Assembly: GCA_017694885.1 (NCBI GenBank)
Contig: JADIMH010000007.1
Location: 244 to 64,243 of the forward strand
Length of the DNA: 64,000 bases
Origin: Candidatus Cryptobacteroides faecipullorum
GTDB taxonomy: Bacteria > Bacteroidota > Bacteroidia > Bacteroidales > UBA932
Direction of reading: 5' to 3'
Positions 1,794 through 10,445 of this stretch are shown piece by piece. Each line of letters starts with the position of its first letter. The first letter of the stretch is position 1. A program made the translations under genes and the position numbers. Under the pieces are notes generated by a model. The model saw nothing but the letters and a program-made list of their open reading frames with translations. It made no database searches and was not told where the DNA came from.

Positions 1794-2171
1794 ATGAAAA
1801 TCATAGGAAACCTGCTGTGGTGGCTCTTCGGAGGACTCGAGGCCGCCATCGGTTACTTCACAGGAAGCCTGGCTCTGGCAATCACCATTATCGGCATTCC
1901 TTTCGCACTGCAGACATTCAAGATCGGGCTTCTGTGCCTCTGGCCATTCGGGGCCGAGATCAGAAGGACTGAAGGACCGGACGGCTGTATCCGCATTCCC
2001 ATGAATATCATATGGATCGTATTCGGAGGTCTGTGGGCATGGATCACACACATATTCTTCGGCATCCTTCTGGGTATAACGATTATCGGCATACCTTTCG
2101 CCAAACAGCATTTTAAAATGGCCGGACTGTCACTGACCCCGTTCGGAAGAGAAGTCCAGCTGAATCTGTAA
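1794..2171 (+). CDS. yccF: YccF-domain inner membrane protein
   Basis: The 125-aa product has a duplicated 'GGLxxAIGY...ITIIGIPFA(L/K)Q.FK' module typical of YccF. Confidence 0.8.
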   Translation: MKIIGNLLWWLFGGLEAAIGYFTGSLALAITIIGIPFALQTFKIGLLCLWPFGAEIRRTEGPDGCIRIPMNIIWIVFGGLWAWITHIFFGILLGITIIGIPFAKQHFKMAGLSLTPFGREVQLNL

Positions 2172-2179
2172 AAAAATGG

Positions 2180-2283
2180 CGGACCGGATGCCGAACTACA
2201 TGCCTCGTTCCGCAATCCGGTCCGTCAGACCAAGGATTTCATCCTTTTCCAGAGACGGACACTCCCCTGCCGACAGCTTTTTT
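2180..2283 (+). terminator. Structured region after yccF: two overlapping stem-loops followed by a T6 run
   Basis: Stem 1 is CGGACCGGAT (2180-2189) with ATCCGGTCCG (2215-2224). Stem 2 is GTCCGTC (2220-2226) with GACGGAC (2254-2260), and it encloses AAGGAT/ATCCTT (2232-2246). A T6 run lies at 2278-2283. Confidence 0.35.
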
Positions 2284-3150
2284 ATGACAAGACGTCCCGC
2301 CGCACAAGCGGAAGCCCTGTCAGGAAAGGCCGCATCCTACCTGGGTTCCTCCACGGAGATGACCGGACACAATGCCTTTGTTCGCATCAACGCCAATCGT
2401 CAGATGGCTGGAGAAGCGATGCTTCTGGAGGCTCCTTCGCACCTCGTCAACGTTCCCAACGTCTCTTATACCAACGTCGTGATGACACCGCAGATGATTC
2501 TCTTCGCGGGAATCAAGCACGAACCCTCCCCTTTCAAGCTGGTGGTCAAGATGTCCGGCAATCAGTCTGCCGGCGTCTCCAACGGATGGAGCAAAACGGT
2601 CATCATCTCCTCGGATACCGAAGACGATTGGGGTGAGGCTGACGTGACCAAACTGTATCTTAAGACCATCGGTGTGGAGCCCTCCCCTGGCCAGAAGGTC
2701 TTCATCGAGACCTATTGGATGGACACCGCCAGCGGCTTCGCCGGGCAGGTGTTCAGGGATATGGCCGTCGTTACCGGAGAATCCTCTTATCAGACTCGTA
2801 CGCGCGTGACAATGGATAACCTGGACCCTACCGAGGAGCAGCACGTCTCTGCGCTGGATATGGACTTCTCCACCAATGCGCCGGTCATCTACTTTGACAC
2901 CGTCTGCCTTGGCCACAGCAATGTCGCTTCCTCTGAGGCCATCCTTGACAAGGAACTCCCTGAGGAACTTATCGGCCTTTCCTATGCACTTGCCCGTGGT
3001 ATGGGTGAAGATGGTTCCCTGCATCCGCAGTCTTACCAGATCCAGTCAATGGTATGGCGCCAGAAAACCGAACTCCATTTCATGCACCGGGGCGGCAAGT
3101 ATATCAAGCCAACCGAGGTTTTCGGTCCCGGCATATTCTATCAACAGTAA
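2284..3150 (+). CDS. Hypothetical protein A, first gene of the orphan operon (the ORF is also open from an ATG at 2176)
   Basis: This is a long ORF with no recognisable motif and no signal peptide. I prefer the 2284 start because 2180-2283 is hairpin-rich and ends in T6, but 2176 cannot be excluded. Confidence 0.55.
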   Translation: MTRRPAAQAEALSGKAASYLGSSTEMTGHNAFVRINANRQMAGEAMLLEAPSHLVNVPNVSYTNVVMTPQMILFAGIKHEPSPFKLVVKMSGNQSAGVSNGWSKTVIISSDTEDDWGEADVTKLYLKTIGVEPSPGQKVFIETYWMDTASGFAGQVFRDMAVVTGESSYQTRTRVTMDNLDPTEEQHVSALDMDFSTNAPVIYFDTVCLGHSNVASSEAILDKELPEELIGLSYALARGMGEDGSLHPQSYQIQSMVWRQKTELHFMHRGGKYIKPTEVFGPGIFYQQ

Positions 3151-3162
3151 TCCCTTCGCACT

Positions 3163-3675
3163 ATGTTCAACTCAACAGGAAATAACTTTGGTGCAGGCGT
3201 CATCCAGTTCAAGGATGTCCAGGAGAGCAATTATATTGTCCTCAACGCCAAGTTCACCTGCAGCCCGCAGAGCGCGGAGTACCAGGCGGCCGAGGTGCTG
3301 GAGATTTATGTCCCGGCCCTCTCGATTGCCCGCAGTACCATTGCCGGTGTCGTGGCCAGGTACAAGGAACGCGGGACTTCCTACGGTTATCCTTATATCT
3401 ATGACGGCGGCACTGTCCTGAAGTCCTGGGTGAAAGATGCCAATACGCTGTGTATTGAGAAACTAAGCTGCTTCGATGACAAGCAGGAAATCATCATCTA
3501 CATCCAGACGCTCTACTGTATGCTGGGCCAGGGCGGGAACGCCACCAAGGGTAAGGAGAAACGCATCACGGCTACATCGGAAGACAATGCGCTCCGTTTC
3601 AGCACTTCCTACTCCTTCTGCGTCGTATTCGAGAAATGGATCTTCTACCACATGATGTTCGACGGTGCCTCGTAG
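3163..3675 (+). CDS. Hypothetical protein B, N-terminal part ending at an in-frame TAG (3673-3675)
   Basis: The 170-codon ORF is paralogous to protein C (4277-4999). The same frame stays open after the TAG. Confidence 0.6.
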   Translation: MFNSTGNNFGAGVIQFKDVQESNYIVLNAKFTCSPQSAEYQAAEVLEIYVPALSIARSTIAGVVARYKERGTSYGYPYIYDGGTVLKSWVKDANTLCIEKLSCFDDKQEIIIYIQTLYCMLGQGGNATKGKEKRITATSEDNALRFSTSYSFCVVFEKWIFYHMMFDGAS

Positions 3676-3819
3676 GCGCTCCGGAACCTGGACTGGGAAG
3701 CCTTCTTCGACACACTTCCGGATGATGTAAATGCCGACGTCCCCGTTATCGCCTCGTACAACTATGGCAATGACAAGCTGGGCGGCATCACGGAGTCCCG
3801 CCTTGAGGGTGGCTACTGG

Positions 3820-4284
3820 ATGCTTCCTAAGGATGAACGTGGGGACGGATTCGAGAATACCGGCAACTATGTGTTCTCCTTTGGTTATCTGGTGCGTGAC
3901 TATGTAGAGGAGCCCGTGATACCCGGAAGACTTCGGATTCAGGAGGAAGAACTGGACGGAGGCCGCTACAACAAGTTCCGGGATTTCGACCTGGAGCTTA
4001 TTCCGTATCCTGCCTTGGCGGCTTGTGAGGGCCATACCGGCATCTACAGTGCCAGCGAATGCACCTTTACGCCGCAGTCCAGGCCCTCGGAGATTCCTGA
4101 GTTTGATGCCAACTTCCTCGACACCTTCCAGGGTGGTCAGGGTCTCTCGGTCCAGCTGCTCAAGATGGAGTATCGGACGGCAACGGCTGCCGGCTCCATC
4201 AAGATTACCGATGAATCCGGGATGAAAAACCTCGCCTTCAAGATGTATGACACGGCCATAGCAATGGCTCTAAACAATGCCTGA
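3820..4284 (+). CDS. Hypothetical protein B, C-terminal part (same frame as 3163-3675, open from 3676)
   Basis: There is no stop between 3676 and 3820, and no ATG, GTG or TTG in that frame before 3820. Similarity to protein C runs across the TAG, so this is most likely one 372-aa gene, either read through or inactivated. Confidence 0.55.
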   Translation: MLPKDERGDGFENTGNYVFSFGYLVRDYVEEPVIPGRLRIQEEELDGGRYNKFRDFDLELIPYPALAACEGHTGIYSASECTFTPQSRPSEIPEFDANFLDTFQGGQGLSVQLLKMEYRTATAAGSIKITDESGMKNLAFKMYDTAIAMALNNA

Positions 4285-4999
4285 CGATATGCTGACGATC
4301 ACTGCTACCAATTTCGGAGTCAATCCGGCCTTTCTCAATATCAAGGAATATCACGAGCAGAACCTGCTTTTGCTGGATGGCGACATTTCGGTGGATACGA
4401 CAGCTGCTGAATACGCCGGAATCCGTCCTATGAAACTGACCGTCGCGGACCTTCCTTTTGCCAAGAGCCGGATTGCTACGGCGCTGGTGACTGCCGCTTC
4501 TGATGGCGTGAACTACTGCACGCTGGCCAAGGTCTGGATAGCTGACAAGAACACCATCTGCATCGGCAAGATTCTGCCATACAAGAGCTTGGGAAACTAT
4601 ACCATCCACCTGAATACCATCTTCATTCCGACGATGGTCACCGGCCCAGTCTCGCTGAATACCTCGAAGGCTTATACTCCGCAGTTCAACAAGGGAACCG
4701 GCGATGGCGTCGAAGTGCTCACGGTAGAGAATCCTCATTGGATGATGTTTATGCTGAAGGCATCCAACCTGGTGTTCGACTCTGATGACCAGGCGGTGGA
4801 GATTCAGCTGCCTGGTTTTCCCTCCGACATCTCCATCAACCCGCCCATCATCTACAACGAATCCCTCTGGAGCAACCTGGGGAGCAAGTATTATCCGGCT
4901 TATCTCCGGAATGGAGTGCTTACCATTTCGAAAGCAGAGGCGGCTGATGAACCGGAAGGGACCGGCACCAAGTTTACCCGCATAATCACAGTCCGTTAA
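4277..4999 (+). CDS. Hypothetical protein C, paralogue of B
   Basis: The start overlaps the stop of B by 8 nt. Shared blocks include 'AKVWIADKNTICIGKI' against B 'LKSWVKDANTLCIEKL', and 'HWMMFMLKAS' against B 'YHMMFDGAS'. Confidence 0.65.
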   Translation: MPDDMLTITATNFGVNPAFLNIKEYHEQNLLLLDGDISVDTTAAEYAGIRPMKLTVADLPFAKSRIATALVTAASDGVNYCTLAKVWIADKNTICIGKILPYKSLGNYTIHLNTIFIPTMVTGPVSLNTSKAYTPQFNKGTGDGVEVLTVENPHWMMFMLKASNLVFDSDDQAVEIQLPGFPSDISINPPIIYNESLWSNLGSKYYPAYLRNGVLTISKAEAADEPEGTGTKFTRIITVR

Positions 5000-5008
5000 T
5001 CCAGCCTT

Positions 5009-5293
5009 ATGTCCGAGAAGAAACGCATAGAACTCACGCGCCTGCAGGGCATCATTGCGGTGGCCAGCTTTGTCTCCGGCATCGTCATCGCAGCCGTGTG
5101 CCTGTTCTTCGTCCCGCCGCTGGGAGAGATTGCCAGCTCCGCCATCAGCATCGTGAGTGAGCTGCTGGTCCTCTGCGGTGCCATTCTCGGCGTCAAAGCC
5201 AGCTATGATGTCAAGTTCCGAAAATTTGAAGCAGAACTTCAGGACGTTATAGACAACGAAAAGAAACTGAATACCCAAACCGACAATGAATAA
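5009..5293 (+). CDS. Small 2-TM membrane protein with a charged C-terminal tail (holin-like architecture)
   Basis: The 94-aa product has two hydrophobic helices ('IIAVASFVSGIVIAAVCLFFV' and 'ISIVSELLVLCGAILGV'). They are followed by a K/E/D-rich tail. Confidence 0.6.
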   Translation: MSEKKRIELTRLQGIIAVASFVSGIVIAAVCLFFVPPLGEIASSAISIVSELLVLCGAILGVKASYDVKFRKFEAELQDVIDNEKKLNTQTDNE

Positions 5294-5765
5294 GTATCTG
5301 CCATTGCTTCTCCTGCTCGCCGCTTCCGCTTGCGGTACTGTCCGGACGCTTCCAGTCCAGGACAGTACCCGGGTGGAAGTCCGGACGGAGGTCAGGACGG
5401 TTCACGACACGGCCTTCGTTGAGCTGCTGGTCATCGTGGAGCGGGTGTCCACCCTCGACACCGCATCCGTCCTGGAGAACAAATACGCCAAATCGGCCGC
5501 TTCCGTGTCGGATGGTGTTCTGCATCATTCGCTGGAGACAAAGCCCGCCAGAGAGCCCGTTTCGGTCGAAAAGCAGATTGTTTATCGAGACTCCCTGGTC
5601 TATCGCGACCGCATCGTCACGCAGACCGTCGAGGTGGAGAAGAAACTCTCCTGGTGGGAATCGCTCAAACTGAAAGTCGGCGGCTTGGCGCTGCTTGCCA
5701 TCGCCCTGCTCGTTGCATATTTCCTTATTACCCATATTATCAACCTTAAATTCTTCAAGTTATGA
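5286..5765 (+). CDS. Lipoprotein with a C-terminal transmembrane anchor (unimolecular-spanin-like architecture)
   Basis: It has a signal/lipobox 'LLLLLAASAC' and a beta-rich middle. The C-terminal TM is 'VGGLALLAIALLVAYFLITHII'. It overlaps the upstream gene by 8 nt and the downstream gene by 4 nt. Confidence 0.6.
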   Translation: MNKYLPLLLLLAASACGTVRTLPVQDSTRVEVRTEVRTVHDTAFVELLVIVERVSTLDTASVLENKYAKSAASVSDGVLHHSLETKPAREPVSVEKQIVYRDSLVYRDRIVTQTVEVEKKLSWWESLKLKVGGLALLAIALLVAYFLITHIINLKFFKL

Positions 5766-6169
5766 AGTACAATCCTTCCATCGCCTTCGACGAAATGTCG
5801 GGCTCCGCAAAGGGTGTCACCGCCGCCAAGACGCGTGGTCGCAAGTACATCCGTAACCGTGGATACGGCGGCTCCACCAGGACCGCGTTCCAGTCTTCCG
5901 TAAAAGCTGTCTTCAAGCAGCTCTCTCAGGCCTGGCAGGGGCTGACCAACGAGCAGATCCTCGCCTGGAATGCAGCGGCCAACACCGCTCAGGGCAAGTC
6001 CGTTCTCGGCACCAAGTCCAAGATCTCCGGAGCGAACCTCTTTATGAGGCTCAACTACTGGGTCGTGTACTGCGGCGGCCAGATCATGACTGCCGTGCCC
6101 GCAGGCGCAAGATGGAAGCCGATCTCTTCTTCTCGTAAAAAGTTCGTACCTTTGCACCCGGAGGTCTGA
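5762..6169 (+). CDS. Small hypothetical protein F with a Lys/Arg/Gly-rich N-terminal arm
   Basis: The 135-aa product contains 'SGSAKGVTAAKTRGRKYIRNRGYGGSTRTAFQ...WQGLTNEQILAWN'. It is the last gene before the terminator, with an ATGA overlap onto the upstream gene. Confidence 0.55.
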   Translation: MKYNPSIAFDEMSGSAKGVTAAKTRGRKYIRNRGYGGSTRTAFQSSVKAVFKQLSQAWQGLTNEQILAWNAAANTAQGKSVLGTKSKISGANLFMRLNYWVVYCGGQIMTAVPAGARWKPISSSRKKFVPLHPEV

Positions 6170-6194
6170 TGCCAGACTTCTATTGTTAACACCC

Positions 6195-6231
6195 GGTGCG
6201 GTCCTGCAGCAATGCTCGGCCGCACCTTTTT
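6195..6231 (+). terminator. Rho-independent terminator of the orphan operon
   Basis: GGTGCGG (6195-6201) pairs with CCGCACC (6220-6226), followed by TTTTT (6227-6231). Confidence 0.6.
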
Positions 6232-6236
6232 CGGTA

Positions 6237-6323
6237 TGCATCTTATCGGATTTCAGAAGTCCATAACTTGCATTTTATCGGATTTCAAGAAGATGTTTTC
6301 TGCATTTTATCGGAATTCAGATA
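6237..6323 (+). repeat. Three direct repeats of about 22 bp spaced exactly 32 bp apart, upstream of the ATPase promoter
   Basis: The copies are TGCATCTTATCGGATTTCAGAAG (6237), TGCATTTTATCGGATTTCAAGAAG (6269) and TGCATTTTATCGGAATTCAGATA (6301). Confidence 0.8.
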
Positions 6324-6330
6324 TTTTTAC

Positions 6331-6338
6331 TACCTTTG
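6331..6338 (+). promoter_or_regulatory. Bacteroidetes -7 promoter box (TAnnTTTG) for the ATPase gene
   Basis: TACCTTTG lies 23 nt upstream of the ATG at 6361. Confidence 0.45.
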
Positions 6339-6360
6339 TATCAACCATTTAGAAAAATCT

Positions 6361-7638
6361 ATGATTGAGGAAAGAATAATCCTGCAAGTCCTTGCAGAAC
6401 AAAGAGATGAAGTCGCCGGTTATAATCCTGCCGGGTGGGTGTCCCGTCGGGAGGAATCTATGTTCGAGTTCGACAGCACGATGGCCCAGGTCGTCATTGG
6501 CGTCCGACGCAGCGGCAAATCAACCATCTGCCACAAAGTCCTGCTGGAGCACGGTATCCGGTATGGTTATGTCAACCTTGACGATGACCGCCTGCTGGGT
6601 ATGGAAGCGAAAGACCTGAATACCGTTCTCTCTTGTATATACCAGCTCTATGGAACTGATGTCCCCTACCTTTTCCTGGACGAGATTCAGGATGTGGACG
6701 GCTGGCATCTGTTCGTAAACAGGCTCCTTCGGAGCAAGATGCGAATCTTCGTGACGGGCAGCAATGCCAAACTGCTCAGCAGCGAACTGGCCACCCATCT
6801 GACCGGACGCTACAACGAGATCCGTCTCTATCCTTTCTCATTCTCCGAGTACTGCGCATATCATCAGGTTGACACTTCTGGCATCACCACCAAGGCCGAT
6901 GCCGCCCGCAAGAGCGCTTTCATGGACTACATCGTCACAGGAGGATTCCCCGAACTCCAGAGCCTGCGGAACAAACGTGGCTACATCGAGAGCCTTATCG
7001 GCGCCATTCTGGAGAAAGACATAAAACGTCGCTTCAAGATCCGCAATATGGACGCACTGCGGAAAATCGCAAATCACCTGATAAACAACACCTGCCAAGA
7101 GGTCAATTACGACGATATGTCTAAGATCCTCGGGATAAGCGACAAGACCTGCAAGAAATATACAGACTACCTCCGCCAGGCATTCCTCATACAAATACTG
7201 TCAAAGCATTCTTTCAAGAGCAAGAACAGGATTCGCAGTCCGAAGGCTTATATCGTCGACCCCGGATTCCAAAACAATCGGGAAAACTCGATGGCCGGAG
7301 AGAATATCGGCTGGCGGCTTGAGAACGTAGTGTACATCGAACTGCTGCGCCGCTGTGCATACGATTTCCGGGACGTCTATTACTACAAGGCCAATCCGCG
7401 AGCCAAAGAGGTCGACTTCGTTGTCTGCGACAAGGACCGGGCACTTGAGCTGATCCAGGTCGCCTACGAGATCGATACACCTAAGTCTTATAATCGCGAG
7501 ACCTCTGCACTTATTCAAGCGGCAGGTCCGCTTCACTGCGACAATCTGACGTTGATTGCCTTCTCCCCTACCCGGGATGTCGAAATCGATGGCAAGACCA
7601 TTCACATCGTATCGGCAATTGAGTGGCTCTTGGCTTAA
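6361..7638 (+). CDS. AAA-family ATPase of the AAA_14/DUF4143 type
   Basis: It has Walker A 'GVRRSGKST' and Walker B 'LFLDEIQD'. The C-terminal region 'EVDFVV...LIQVAYEI' resembles the nuclease-fold tail of this family. The start is set at 6361 because 6196-6231 is a terminator. Confidence 0.75.
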   Translation: MIEERIILQVLAEQRDEVAGYNPAGWVSRREESMFEFDSTMAQVVIGVRRSGKSTICHKVLLEHGIRYGYVNLDDDRLLGMEAKDLNTVLSCIYQLYGTDVPYLFLDEIQDVDGWHLFVNRLLRSKMRIFVTGSNAKLLSSELATHLTGRYNEIRLYPFSFSEYCAYHQVDTSGITTKADAARKSAFMDYIVTGGFPELQSLRNKRGYIESLIGAILEKDIKRRFKIRNMDALRKIANHLINNTCQEVNYDDMSKILGISDKTCKKYTDYLRQAFLIQILSKHSFKSKNRIRSPKAYIVDPGFQNNRENSMAGENIGWRLENVVYIELLRRCAYDFRDVYYYKANPRAKEVDFVVCDKDRALELIQVAYEIDTPKSYNRETSALIQAAGPLHCDNLTLIAFSPTRDVEIDGKTIHIVSAIEWLLA

Positions 7639-7664
7639 TGAATCTGCAAGATTGAATGATGAGA

Positions 7665-7760
7665 TTCGGGGACGGTCCTTCAACTTTTTTGTCCCCCATC
7701 CTCAAAATCCCTGCAAAAAAGTTGGTCCCTCCAAAATTTCGGGGACAGCAGGGGGACAAA
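7665..7760. repeat. Cluster of overlapping inverted and direct repeats (possible structured RNA or element end)
   Basis: CAACTTTTTTG (7681-7691) pairs with CAAAAAAGTTG (7714-7724). TTTGTCCCCC (7688-7697) pairs with GGGGGACAAA (7751-7760). TTCGGGGAC is repeated directly at 7665 and 7738. Confidence 0.7.
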
Positions 7761-7804
7761 GATGAAAAGGTTAAAATGATAAAGTATTTATTTACAATAA
7801 GTTA

Positions 7805-7984
7805 CTAAATTCCAATATTTCCTATATCGGAAAATATAAGGTCTACAGATTCCGACATGATGAAAGTGACCGCTTTGCCAAGATCATTGAACGAACCGGC
7901 AAGTTCGAGGAAAGGCACTTTCGCGATATAGCTGCAGACCAGATCTACTGCCGGCTTTTCGTCATCAATAAAAATACAACGCAT
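7805..7984 (-). pseudogene. Truncated LytTR-type response regulator (first about 54 residues of the receiver domain only)
   Basis: Hand translation gives 'MRCIFIDDEKPAVDLVCSYIAKVPFLELAGSFNDLGKAVTFIMSESVDLIFSDIGNIGI*'. This aligns to the N-terminus of the intact regulator at 8634-9365 and stops just after the acceptor-Asp region. Confidence 0.7.
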
Positions 7985-7996
7985 AACTGATTGAAT

Positions 7997-8589
7997 TTAC
8001 ATTGTTTCAATTTCCAGGTATGAATAGTATTTTTCATTGTCCGTCACACCATACTGATCCGTATCGTCCGGAAGCCGTTCTCCTGCGAGGTCGATATAGT
8101 TGCGGATAAAAGACACTTCTTCCCTAAAATATACCTCAGGCCTGTCACTGCGGTACAACGCATACCTGAGCAACTCGCACAAACTGTCGAGGGAGCGTCT
8201 TGCATGGTCGGAATCGGAACCGATAAAAGAATATATGTTATTCAGCGCATTGAACAGGAAATGAGGATTCAGCTGGTTCTTCAGATTCTGCAGTTCTATT
8301 CTGACATGGCTGTGCTCCTGTTCCTTTCTCCTCTTTTCATTTTCATACCATCTTCTGATTATCCTGAAAACTATTGCGGTCCCTATGGCACATACGTACA
8401 GCAAGGTGTTTACGAACAGGAAATGGAACGGTCTGAATCCGATGCCGCCGAATTCCGGCACGGGAGGCGCTATGGAATCAGGTACCGGCGGAGCAGCAGG
8501 ATATAATCAGTGAATTTCTCAATGCGTACGCCCGAGGTATAAGCCAGATATGGAAGACACAGTATGATTATCCATACGAGCACATTCAC
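7997..8589 (-). pseudogene. Decayed LytS/YehU-type sensor histidine kinase (frameshifted, lacks the HATPase domain)
   Basis: ORF 7997-8461 has the His-kinase block 'LQNLKNQLNPHFLFNALNNIYSF' but ends before any 'ENAFKHG' ATPase motif. An out-of-frame fragment (8470-8589, 'VLVWIIILCLPYL...') matches the N-terminal TM of the intact kinase. Confidence 0.65.
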
Positions 8590-8633: not shown

Positions 8634-9365
8634 TCACATCATGCATTTCCCTACCATTTTCTGCAGAGTTTCCTTGTATGTGTCCCCTATCGGGATATTC
8701 GCGTTTTCCAGCATTATCCGGCCCCGGTCGATGGATCTTATCTTGGAAATATTGACTATGAACGACCGATGGACCCTCAAGAACCTGTCCCGAGGCAGCA
8801 TACCTTCAAGATCCCTCATATTCATGAGTGAAAGTACGGGTGCCCCGGAAGATTCAATATAGAACTTGACATAATCCTTGAGACCTTCGACATAAAGCAG
8901 GCCGTCGAACGGAATACGGACCAGCCGGTATTCGCTTTTCACATATACTCCGGAGTTGTCCCGTACCGTACCTGCCGCATTATTGCTTCCGGCAGCCTTC
9001 CTGGCTATGCTGAACCATTCGATGGCCTTGCCGACACACCGCATGAATTCCTGATATGAAACCGGTTTGAGAAGGTAATCGAGTGCATTGACCTTATATC
9101 CTTCTATGGCATACTGGCCGAATGCCGTCGTAAATACTACACGTGTCGAAGCCGGTATCATTTTAGACAGTTCCATGCCGTCAAGTTCCGGCATCTGTAT
9201 ATCAAGGAAAAGCAGGTCCACAGGATTTTCCTTAAGGCCGGCGAGCGCTTCGACAGCATTGCGGTACCTGCCCTCCAGTTCAAGAGAAGGGGTCTTCTTC
9301 ACATAGCTTTCCAGAAGGTCCAGAGCCAAAGGCTCGTCATCCGTTATGGCGCATTTCAGTATCAT
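8634..9365 (-). CDS. LytTR-family two-component response regulator
   Basis: The receiver carries 'LLFLDIQMPELDG'. The C-terminal LytTR DNA-binding domain carries 'FLRVHRSFIVN'. Confidence 0.9.
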   Translation of the reverse strand: MILKCAITDDEPLALDLLESYVKKTPSLELEGRYRNAVEALAGLKENPVDLLFLDIQMPELDGMELSKMIPASTRVVFTTAFGQYAIEGYKVNALDYLLKPVSYQEFMRCVGKAIEWFSIARKAAGSNNAAGTVRDNSGVYVKSEYRLVRIPFDGLLYVEGLKDYVKFYIESSGAPVLSLMNMRDLEGMLPRDRFLRVHRSFIVNISKIRSIDRGRIMLENANIPIGDTYKETLQKMVGKCMM

Positions 9366-9389
9366 CTGTCTGCACGGTTTAAAAACATT

Positions 9390-10445
9390 TCACTTCTTTT
9401 TTATAATCAGCAAAGACCGGTATACCGTCCCTGAGCTGTCCGGGCCGAAGGTCCACTCGTATTTTCCGGGATAAAGCAGTTCCAGTCTTCTGGAAAGAGA
9501 ATCCAGACCTATGCCGGAGCCGCTTTTATCCGAGCTGGATTTCGGATGGCAGCTATTGATTATATCGCAACGTATTTCTTCTTCATTCTCGCCAAGCCTT
9601 ATCCTGACAAAACTCTTTCCGGAAGAGGATATCCCGTGTTTGAAGGCATTCTCTATCAAAGAAATGAACAGCATCGGAGCTATTTCAGTCCGGCTGTCTT
9701 CAGATATGCCGATACTTGTTTCAAGGCTGACATCCCGGGTCAGGCGGATTCTCATCAGTTCGATATAGTTCCGAATAAAAGCCACCTCTCTTCCCAAAAG
9801 AACCTTCTCATGCTGGTTGTCATACAGGACATATCGCAGAAGACGGCTCAGTTCCGACACCGCAGACTGCGCTTTATCCGGATCGAAAGCTATAAGTGCG
9901 TAAATATTGTTCAGGGTGTTGAGCAGGAAATGCGGATTCAGCTGGTTCCTCAGATTCTTGAGTTCCGCTTCCGTCTTCCCCCGTTCCGCCTCTTTTCTCG
10001 CATTTTCCGTCTTCAGCCACCTACGCCCGAACTGGACGGAAACAGCTACTCCAATCACAAGCGCCAGTGAAGACACATCCCTGAAGAAAAACAATATTCC
10101 GGGATTAAGCCTGAAACGGGGCAAATCACGCAGCGGTTCAGGCGGCGCAAGACACAAATGCAATGCCTGCATCAGAACGCCGGAAAAAACGATAAGCGCC
10201 AGATTCAGCAGCACCCAGGCCATAGTCTTTTCCCTGAAAAGCAGTTTAGGGATAAAAATACAATAGTTCAGATAAAAGACAATACAGAAAAACAGGGGTA
10301 CTATACTGTGATGCAGTATCCTCGGCCAGTCTATTCCGGAAGACTCGTTGGTCACCAGAAGAAGCGGGAAACCGAAAAACAAGACCCACACCAGTATGTG
10401 GATCATCGGTTCAATGAAGCGTATGCCGTTTTTCTGCTGTTCCAT
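9390..10445 (-). CDS. Sensor histidine kinase (LytS/YehU-type His_kinase plus HATPase_c)
   Basis: It has N-terminal TM helices, 'LKNLRNQLNPHFLLNTLNNIYALI', 'LIENAFKHG' and 'GSGIGL'. Confidence 0.88.
   Translation of the reverse strand: MEQQKNGIRFIEPMIHILVWVLFFGFPLLLVTNESSGIDWPRILHHSIVPLFFCIVFYLNYCIFIPKLLFREKTMAWVLLNLALIVFSGVLMQALHLCLAPPEPLRDLPRFRLNPGILFFFRDVSSLALVIGVAVSVQFGRRWLKTENARKEAERGKTEAELKNLRNQLNPHFLLNTLNNIYALIAFDPDKAQSAVSELSRLLRYVLYDNQHEKVLLGREVAFIRNYIELMRIRLTRDVSLETSIGISEDSRTEIAPMLFISLIENAFKHGISSSGKSFVRIRLGENEEEIRCDIINSCHPKSSSDKSGSGIGLDSLSRRLELLYPGKYEWTFGPDSSGTVYRSLLIIKKK

Follow-up and report, generated by a model that had tools for sequence, protein, structure and literature searches.

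Gene B and the surrounding island

The stretch of DNA analysed here (the window) comprises 64,000 nucleotides of contig JADIMH010000007.1 from Candidatus Cryptobacteroides faecipullorum, which was described from chicken gut (PMC8035907). It carries a gene, here called B, that normally encodes a 373-residue protein, all-beta in an AlphaFold2 model, and whose reading frame is split by an in-frame amber codon (Table 1). The first segment, ORF 3163-3675, consists of 170 codons and the terminator TAG. Past the TAG the frame stays open for another 202 codons, with 48 sense codons (3676-3819) leading up to an ATG at 3820, from which the frame continues to a TGA at 4282-4284. No ATG, GTG or TTG occurs in this frame between the TAG and 3820. 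The coordinates, the open frame downstream and the lack of any start codon before 3820 are thus as the earlier note had described them. Its length of 372 aa for the undivided product counts the sense codons only, and the read-through product is 373 residues with the stop position included. The protein around the stop reads FDGAS-X-ALRNLDWE, X being the TAG position, and the sequence spanning the TAG is GCCTCGTAGGCGCTC; the junction peptide of a read-through product would run FDGAS-X-ALRNLDWEAFFDTLPDDVNADVPVIASYNYGNDK. The two proteins annotated here, MBO8466349.1 and MBO8466350.1, are two halves of one broken gene.

Table 1. Features of gene B and the neighbouring island genes, in window coordinates
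Feature	Position	Strand	Remarks
Gene A, 5′-truncated	2176-3150	+	Residues 45-324 match the 350-aa A family; p135-like N-terminal domain missing
Gene B, 5′ part (codons 1-170 and the amber codon)	3163-3675	+	In GenBank a separate hypothetical protein, MBO8466349.1
Premature TAG, codon 171 of B	3673-3675	+	A at 3674, where the intact allele and close orthologues have G (TGG, Trp)
Gene B, remainder (codons 172-373 and TGA)	3676-4284	+	Frame still open; long-term dN/dS of 0.06-0.12, the same as between intact orthologues
154-aa ORF, gene-caller annotation MBO8466350.1	3820-4284	+	Starts at the first in-frame start codon past the TAG, codon 220 of B
Paralogue C, 240 aa	4277-4999	+	Homology to B covers its N-terminal domain (about residues 1-246)
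p94, small hydrophobic, conserved in the module	5009-5293	+	
p159, conserved in the module	5286-5765	+	By eye, hydrophobic at both termini, with a Cys after the N-terminal stretch (lipoprotein-like)
p135, first ~113 residues of the A-like gene A′, 3′-truncated	5762-6169	+	A′ is about 230 aa in relatives
AAA_14/DUF4143 ATPase	6196-7638	+	Right edge of the low-diversity island

In relatives, B belongs to a module with the gene order 238-aa gene, A (about 350 aa), B, C, p94, p159 and A′ (about 230 aa). The module is widespread in gut and rumen Bacteroidales, with 1,145 protein clusters in the A family and 189 in the B family. A p135-like N-terminal domain is common to three of the module genes. 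In the window, A has lost its N-terminal domain, residues 1-44 being unrelated sequence, and p135 is cut short, so the module is truncated at both ends. Other strains of the species show A split, shortened or replaced by other sequence, and p94 and p159 either fused by a 262-bp deletion or present with a 39-bp deletion in p159. To the right of the island, at 7997-8461 on the reverse strand, the window retains 154 aa of a fragmented His_kinase (PF06580) gene beside an intact pair of LytTR response regulator and kinase (8634-10445). This His_kinase gene is full-length (350-362 aa) at two loci (L072 and L073) and fragmented or variously deleted at most, the window included.

Nucleotide diversity among 15 strains is 0.1-0.5% from A to the AAA_14 gene (2176-7638), compared with 1.0-1.7% in the flanking core genes (3-2171 and 8634-9365). 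This diversity, about 10 times lower than in the flanks, suggests a recent acquisition or sweep of the island, which may then have been recombined onto different backgrounds. Elsewhere, the module sometimes adjoins HTH_17, AAA_25 or primase genes or an integrase (of 62 related loci, 10 have an AAA_25 gene and 8 a primase gene within about 8-10 kb of it); in other genomes it also lies beside core genes, e.g. priA and parAB. Its tie to mobile-element genes (AAA_25, primase) is suggestive, not defining. Past the start of the window, upstream of a YdjC/beta-lactamase gene, two alternative contexts are found within the species (loci L062-L077), one with tyrosine integrase, NusG, FHA, Ser/Thr kinase and PP2C genes and the other with NusB, YajC and CoaE, and either of the B alleles described below occurs with both.

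Continuity of gene B in its relatives

With the read-through B sequence as query, 189 relatives were retrieved from a collection of 5.8 billion proteins, about 75 of which are full-length, uninterrupted proteins of 370-374 aa with up to 96% identity to B. A scan of GTDB representative genomes gave 59 loci, and all 20 of the full-length B copies are free of an in-frame stop. A stop at codon 171 is conserved in none of these relatives (about 75 orthologues and 20 genomic copies), and the earlier note was right that the ancestral gene was continuous. When 27 B orthologues were aligned, the stop position was occupied by Trp in 15, including every one at least 75% identical to the window, and by Tyr, Phe, Thr, Ser, Asp or Gly in the other 12. 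Locus L002 has TCGTGGGCG where the window has TCGTAGGCG, the 33 surrounding bases being identical. At the DNA level L002 reads TTCGACGGTGCCTCGTGGGCGCTCCGGAACCTG, from which the window departs there solely by TAG in place of TGG. As the two differ only in this codon, the event is a single G-to-A transition at 3674.

The earlier note had argued for continuity from paralogue C, which it aligned on both sides of the stop. C is indeed a true paralogue and the alignment does cross the stop, since BLASTP matches residues 1-234 of B with 5-230 of C (E = 9e-14, 22% identity). However, the register that BLAST gives just 5′ of the stop is not the one proposed there, and the 81 residues past the stop, when compared alone with C, reach no more than marginal significance (E = 0.012), even if the match, at C 182-231, is collinear. 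By itself, the paralogue argument is therefore weak for the part downstream of the stop, and the orthologues make it unnecessary.

Both paralogue C and a short-form B family (245-266 aa) match residues 1-246 of B only, and the short forms stop directly after a conserved FAFLVRD motif. This places natural termination near residue 246, so a 170-residue product is a truncated domain. Residue 171 in the AlphaFold2 model of an intact orthologue lies just past the strand formed by residues 159-169, in a well-ordered region of pLDDT 90-95. In tblastn, alignments seemed to run through the stops of short-form B genes, but only because the following gene, p94, lies by chance in the same frame and the alignments extended into it. 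Many genomes (loci L021-L058) have one short B-like gene of about 246 aa without a separate C. From this distribution, the arrangement of a long B together with C seems to have come about by duplication and by the addition of a C-terminal domain of ~125 residues to B.

Amber and intact alleles within the species

The exact 170-aa fragment was found on 190 independent contigs and the exact 154-aa fragment on 188, coming from several independent studies and assemblers (NCBI MAG, ENA ERZ16268xxx, ERZ286xxxxx and ERZ247735xx, and Logan). The contigs with the TAG allele include one NCBI MAG, of Candidatus Cryptobacteroides faecipullorum, in which the fragments are annotated as two hypothetical proteins. 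An assembly error at 3673-3675 is excluded by these exact recurrences, and nothing was found to support an artefact of sequencing or assembly, an idea that can be given practically no weight. The intact allele, i.e. the window sequence with Trp171 (P0164), is present on 59 contigs and in 124 collection blocks of the same species. It occupies the same locus as in the window, with the YdjC/beta-lactamase and YccF genes on one side and the AAA_14/DUF4143 gene on the other. The protein collection contains no version of the window sequence in which residue 171 is Gln, Tyr, Leu or Ser. With 358 blocks for its 170-aa fragment, against 124 for the exactly matching intact allele, the TAG allele is in the majority, with the qualification that block counts are not unbiased allele frequencies.

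Comparison of 10 TAG loci with 6 TGG loci showed that position 3674 is the only consistent difference in the 1122-bp gene; five further sites vary among the 16 loci, each in single loci only. The TAG and TGG alleles are interspersed when the flanks are compared, and the TAG allele is found on several flanking haplotypes. The closest locus to the window carries TGG, with 24 differences in about 9.4 kb. This interspersion indicates that either the TAG allele may have moved across backgrounds by recombination or both alleles may be older than the strain splits. The recent nonsense mutation that the earlier note listed as one of three readings is thus borne out as a change from TGG to TAG at 3674, with an otherwise identical intact allele segregating in the same species. 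We found no paper in the literature on pseudogenes in Cryptobacteroides.

The nearest diverged B orthologues (87-90% DNA identity) were used to calculate dN/dS. Values for the window against these orthologues are 0.08-0.09 on the 5′ side of the stop and 0.06-0.12 on the 3′ side, compared with 0.10-0.12 between intact orthologues. Past the stop, 31 base changes are unique to the window lineage and only 5 amino-acid changes result. The low dN/dS and the few amino-acid changes show that the downstream part was under purifying selection over nearly its whole history, and hence that the stop is very recent. The downstream ORF is identical in nearly all TAG contigs (188 of 190), which is expected if the allele is young and would also be seen under continuing constraint.

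Gene B is knocked out in two further ways in the same species (loci L078-L083), in both cases with TGG kept at codon 171. In one allele a 1-bp deletion, at 3465 (codon 101), gives rise to a 254-aa downstream gene call (P0125, 30 blocks), while the other carries a TGG-to-TGA change of W89 at 3429 and gives 88-aa and 284-aa gene calls (P0141, 5 contigs). Three independent knock-outs of one gene suggest either relaxed constraint or an advantage of loss, and argue against a designed stop.

Interpretation of the amber codon and of the module

The reading that we favour, with a probability of roughly 0.88, is that the TAG is a real and young W171amber loss-of-function allele (TGG to TAG at 3674) in a decaying accessory island. 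The G-to-A transition turned Trp171 into an amber codon, and as TAG is an ordinary terminator in this host, translation is expected to end after residue 170, inside the N-terminal domain. The product would probably be a non-functional fragment, and the 202 codons downstream look gene-like only because the mutation is very young. W171amber is common and segregates with the intact allele in natural populations of this chicken-gut species; the island, recently acquired and already decaying, has been disrupted independently several times, and W171amber is one of these events. The analysis shows the mutation, the polymorphism, the normal use of TAG and the other knock-out alleles, and from these we infer efficient termination at the TAG and a lack of function of the fragments. 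The majority status of the TAG and its presence on several haplotypes count against a purely deleterious mutation. This majority fits neutrality or an advantage of loss, and taken by itself it would leave room for some remaining function of B, whether by leaky read-through or because the split protein still works. In its features the locus resembles a nonsense pseudogene, or a segregating loss-of-function allele in a bacterial island: the stop is one base away from sense, relatives are intact, both alleles coexist, neighbouring island genes are decaying too, and the downstream frame is open since the event is recent. There is no mechanistic difference from an ordinary nonsense pseudogene, and what is unusual is that the broken form is the majority allele and that two more independent knock-outs exist in one population.

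The earlier note had also considered programmed or leaky read-through of the TAG. This would yield a short 170-aa product together with a low level of the full 373-aa protein, like the A1 coat extension of Q-beta. Near-cognate stop-codon read-through does happen in bacteria at a low basal frequency, and the intact downstream frame, identical in 188 of 190 TAG contigs, speaks for such a mechanism; B also shares with the levivirus case an in-frame stop, a long same-frame extension after it and a beta-rich protein. However, the stop of B is unconserved, being present in none of the ~75 orthologues and none of the 20 genomic copies, and the TAG allele is a single base from the intact one. Whereas the stop in Q-beta A1-type read-through separates two modules, that of B interrupts an N-terminal domain which ends near residue 246 in C and the short forms, so that the short product is a broken domain. 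No sign of a stimulatory RNA element was seen in B: the RNA of 3660-3780 folds no better than shuffles (z = +0.52) and no Rfam match was found in 2000-8000; no consensus read-through element is defined for Bacteroidales. Together with the alleles of B that are broken by a frameshift or by TGA, these results leave read-through unsupported, and we regard it as very improbable.

Still harder to sustain is the proposal that the island is what remains of a phage that read TAG as Gln (genetic code 15), so that the codon was once sense. Gut phages of Bacteroidales, crAss-like ones among them, do show such recoding, with many in-frame TAGs read as Gln and usually a suppressor tRNA (bioRxiv 10.1101/2021.08.26.457843; PMC9523058). 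The locus has in common with the code-15 gut phages (crAss-like, Lak) a Bacteroidales host and an in-frame TAG, but there is one TAG in one gene here, that at 3673 being the only stop in the island (2176-7638) with long open segments of a single gene on either side. TGG is the ancestral codon, and the orthologous residue is Trp, or further out Tyr or Phe, rather than Gln. No tRNA gene was detected by ARAGORN in the 64-kb window, and no suppressor tRNA is therefore seen there. TAG ends 20 of the 56 long non-overlapping ORFs in the window and is the commonest terminator of the host. Phage matches are equally lacking: B and A had none in tblastn against 50,697 phage genomes, and IMG/VR (2.9 million contigs) contained 1 locus only, where the module sits beside an integrase, an MmeI restriction-modification gene and a SusD-family gene. 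Neither phage hallmark genes nor PHROG matches of note were found. A phage origin of the TAG is accordingly unsupported, and its chances are minimal.

A further possibility accepts the same molecular event as the favoured reading and differs from it in the evolutionary force alone. In this case, inactivation of B would be favoured, e.g. because the protein is costly or a target, and knock-outs would recur and rise in frequency. The three independent loss-of-function alleles in one gene of one species speak for such an advantage, as do the number of blocks with the TAG (358, against 124 intact) and its occurrence on several recombinant flanking backgrounds. Against this, block counts do not give unbiased allele frequencies, and A, p94/p159, A′ and the adjoining histidine kinase are also broken in various strains, which a general relaxation of constraint fits equally well. 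We therefore consider adaptive loss of B unlikely, and are similarly doubtful that positive selection carried the amber allele to its majority as recombination spread it over strain backgrounds. A variant in which low-level amber read-through tunes the dose of B is much less likely. If the loss were adaptive, B would represent adaptive gene loss in a newly acquired island, among proteins with a confidently predicted but unmatched all-beta fold.

On the favoured reading of a young loss-of-function allele, the result is mostly negative, in that the amber codon of this Bacteroidales chromosome points neither to an altered genetic code nor to programmed read-through. It does provide a clean natural case of a young nonsense allele, in which two versions one base apart are both common in public chicken-gut metagenomes. 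More interesting as a target than the stop codon is the wider module, which is widespread and entirely uncharacterised and has >1,100 protein clusters in its A family alone. Pfam, PHROGs, NCBIfam and PADLOC had no meaningful matches for A, B, C, p94, p159 and p135, and no PDB sequence was matched by a profile of the B family. For an intact B orthologue, the AlphaFold2 model is all-beta and confident (pLDDT 91), and a Foldseek search of the B model against PDB and BFVD returned weak, generic beta-sandwich/jelly-roll matches, with E values of about 1e-3 or worse and TM of 0.2 or less. We go no further than to call B a beta-rich protein from an accessory module of Bacteroidales that is itself uncharacterised. 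The structure model of the A family is poor (pLDDT 49). The AAA_14/DUF4143 ATPase next to the module (6196-7638) matches the PADLOC candidate defence family PDC-S01 with E = 2e-98.
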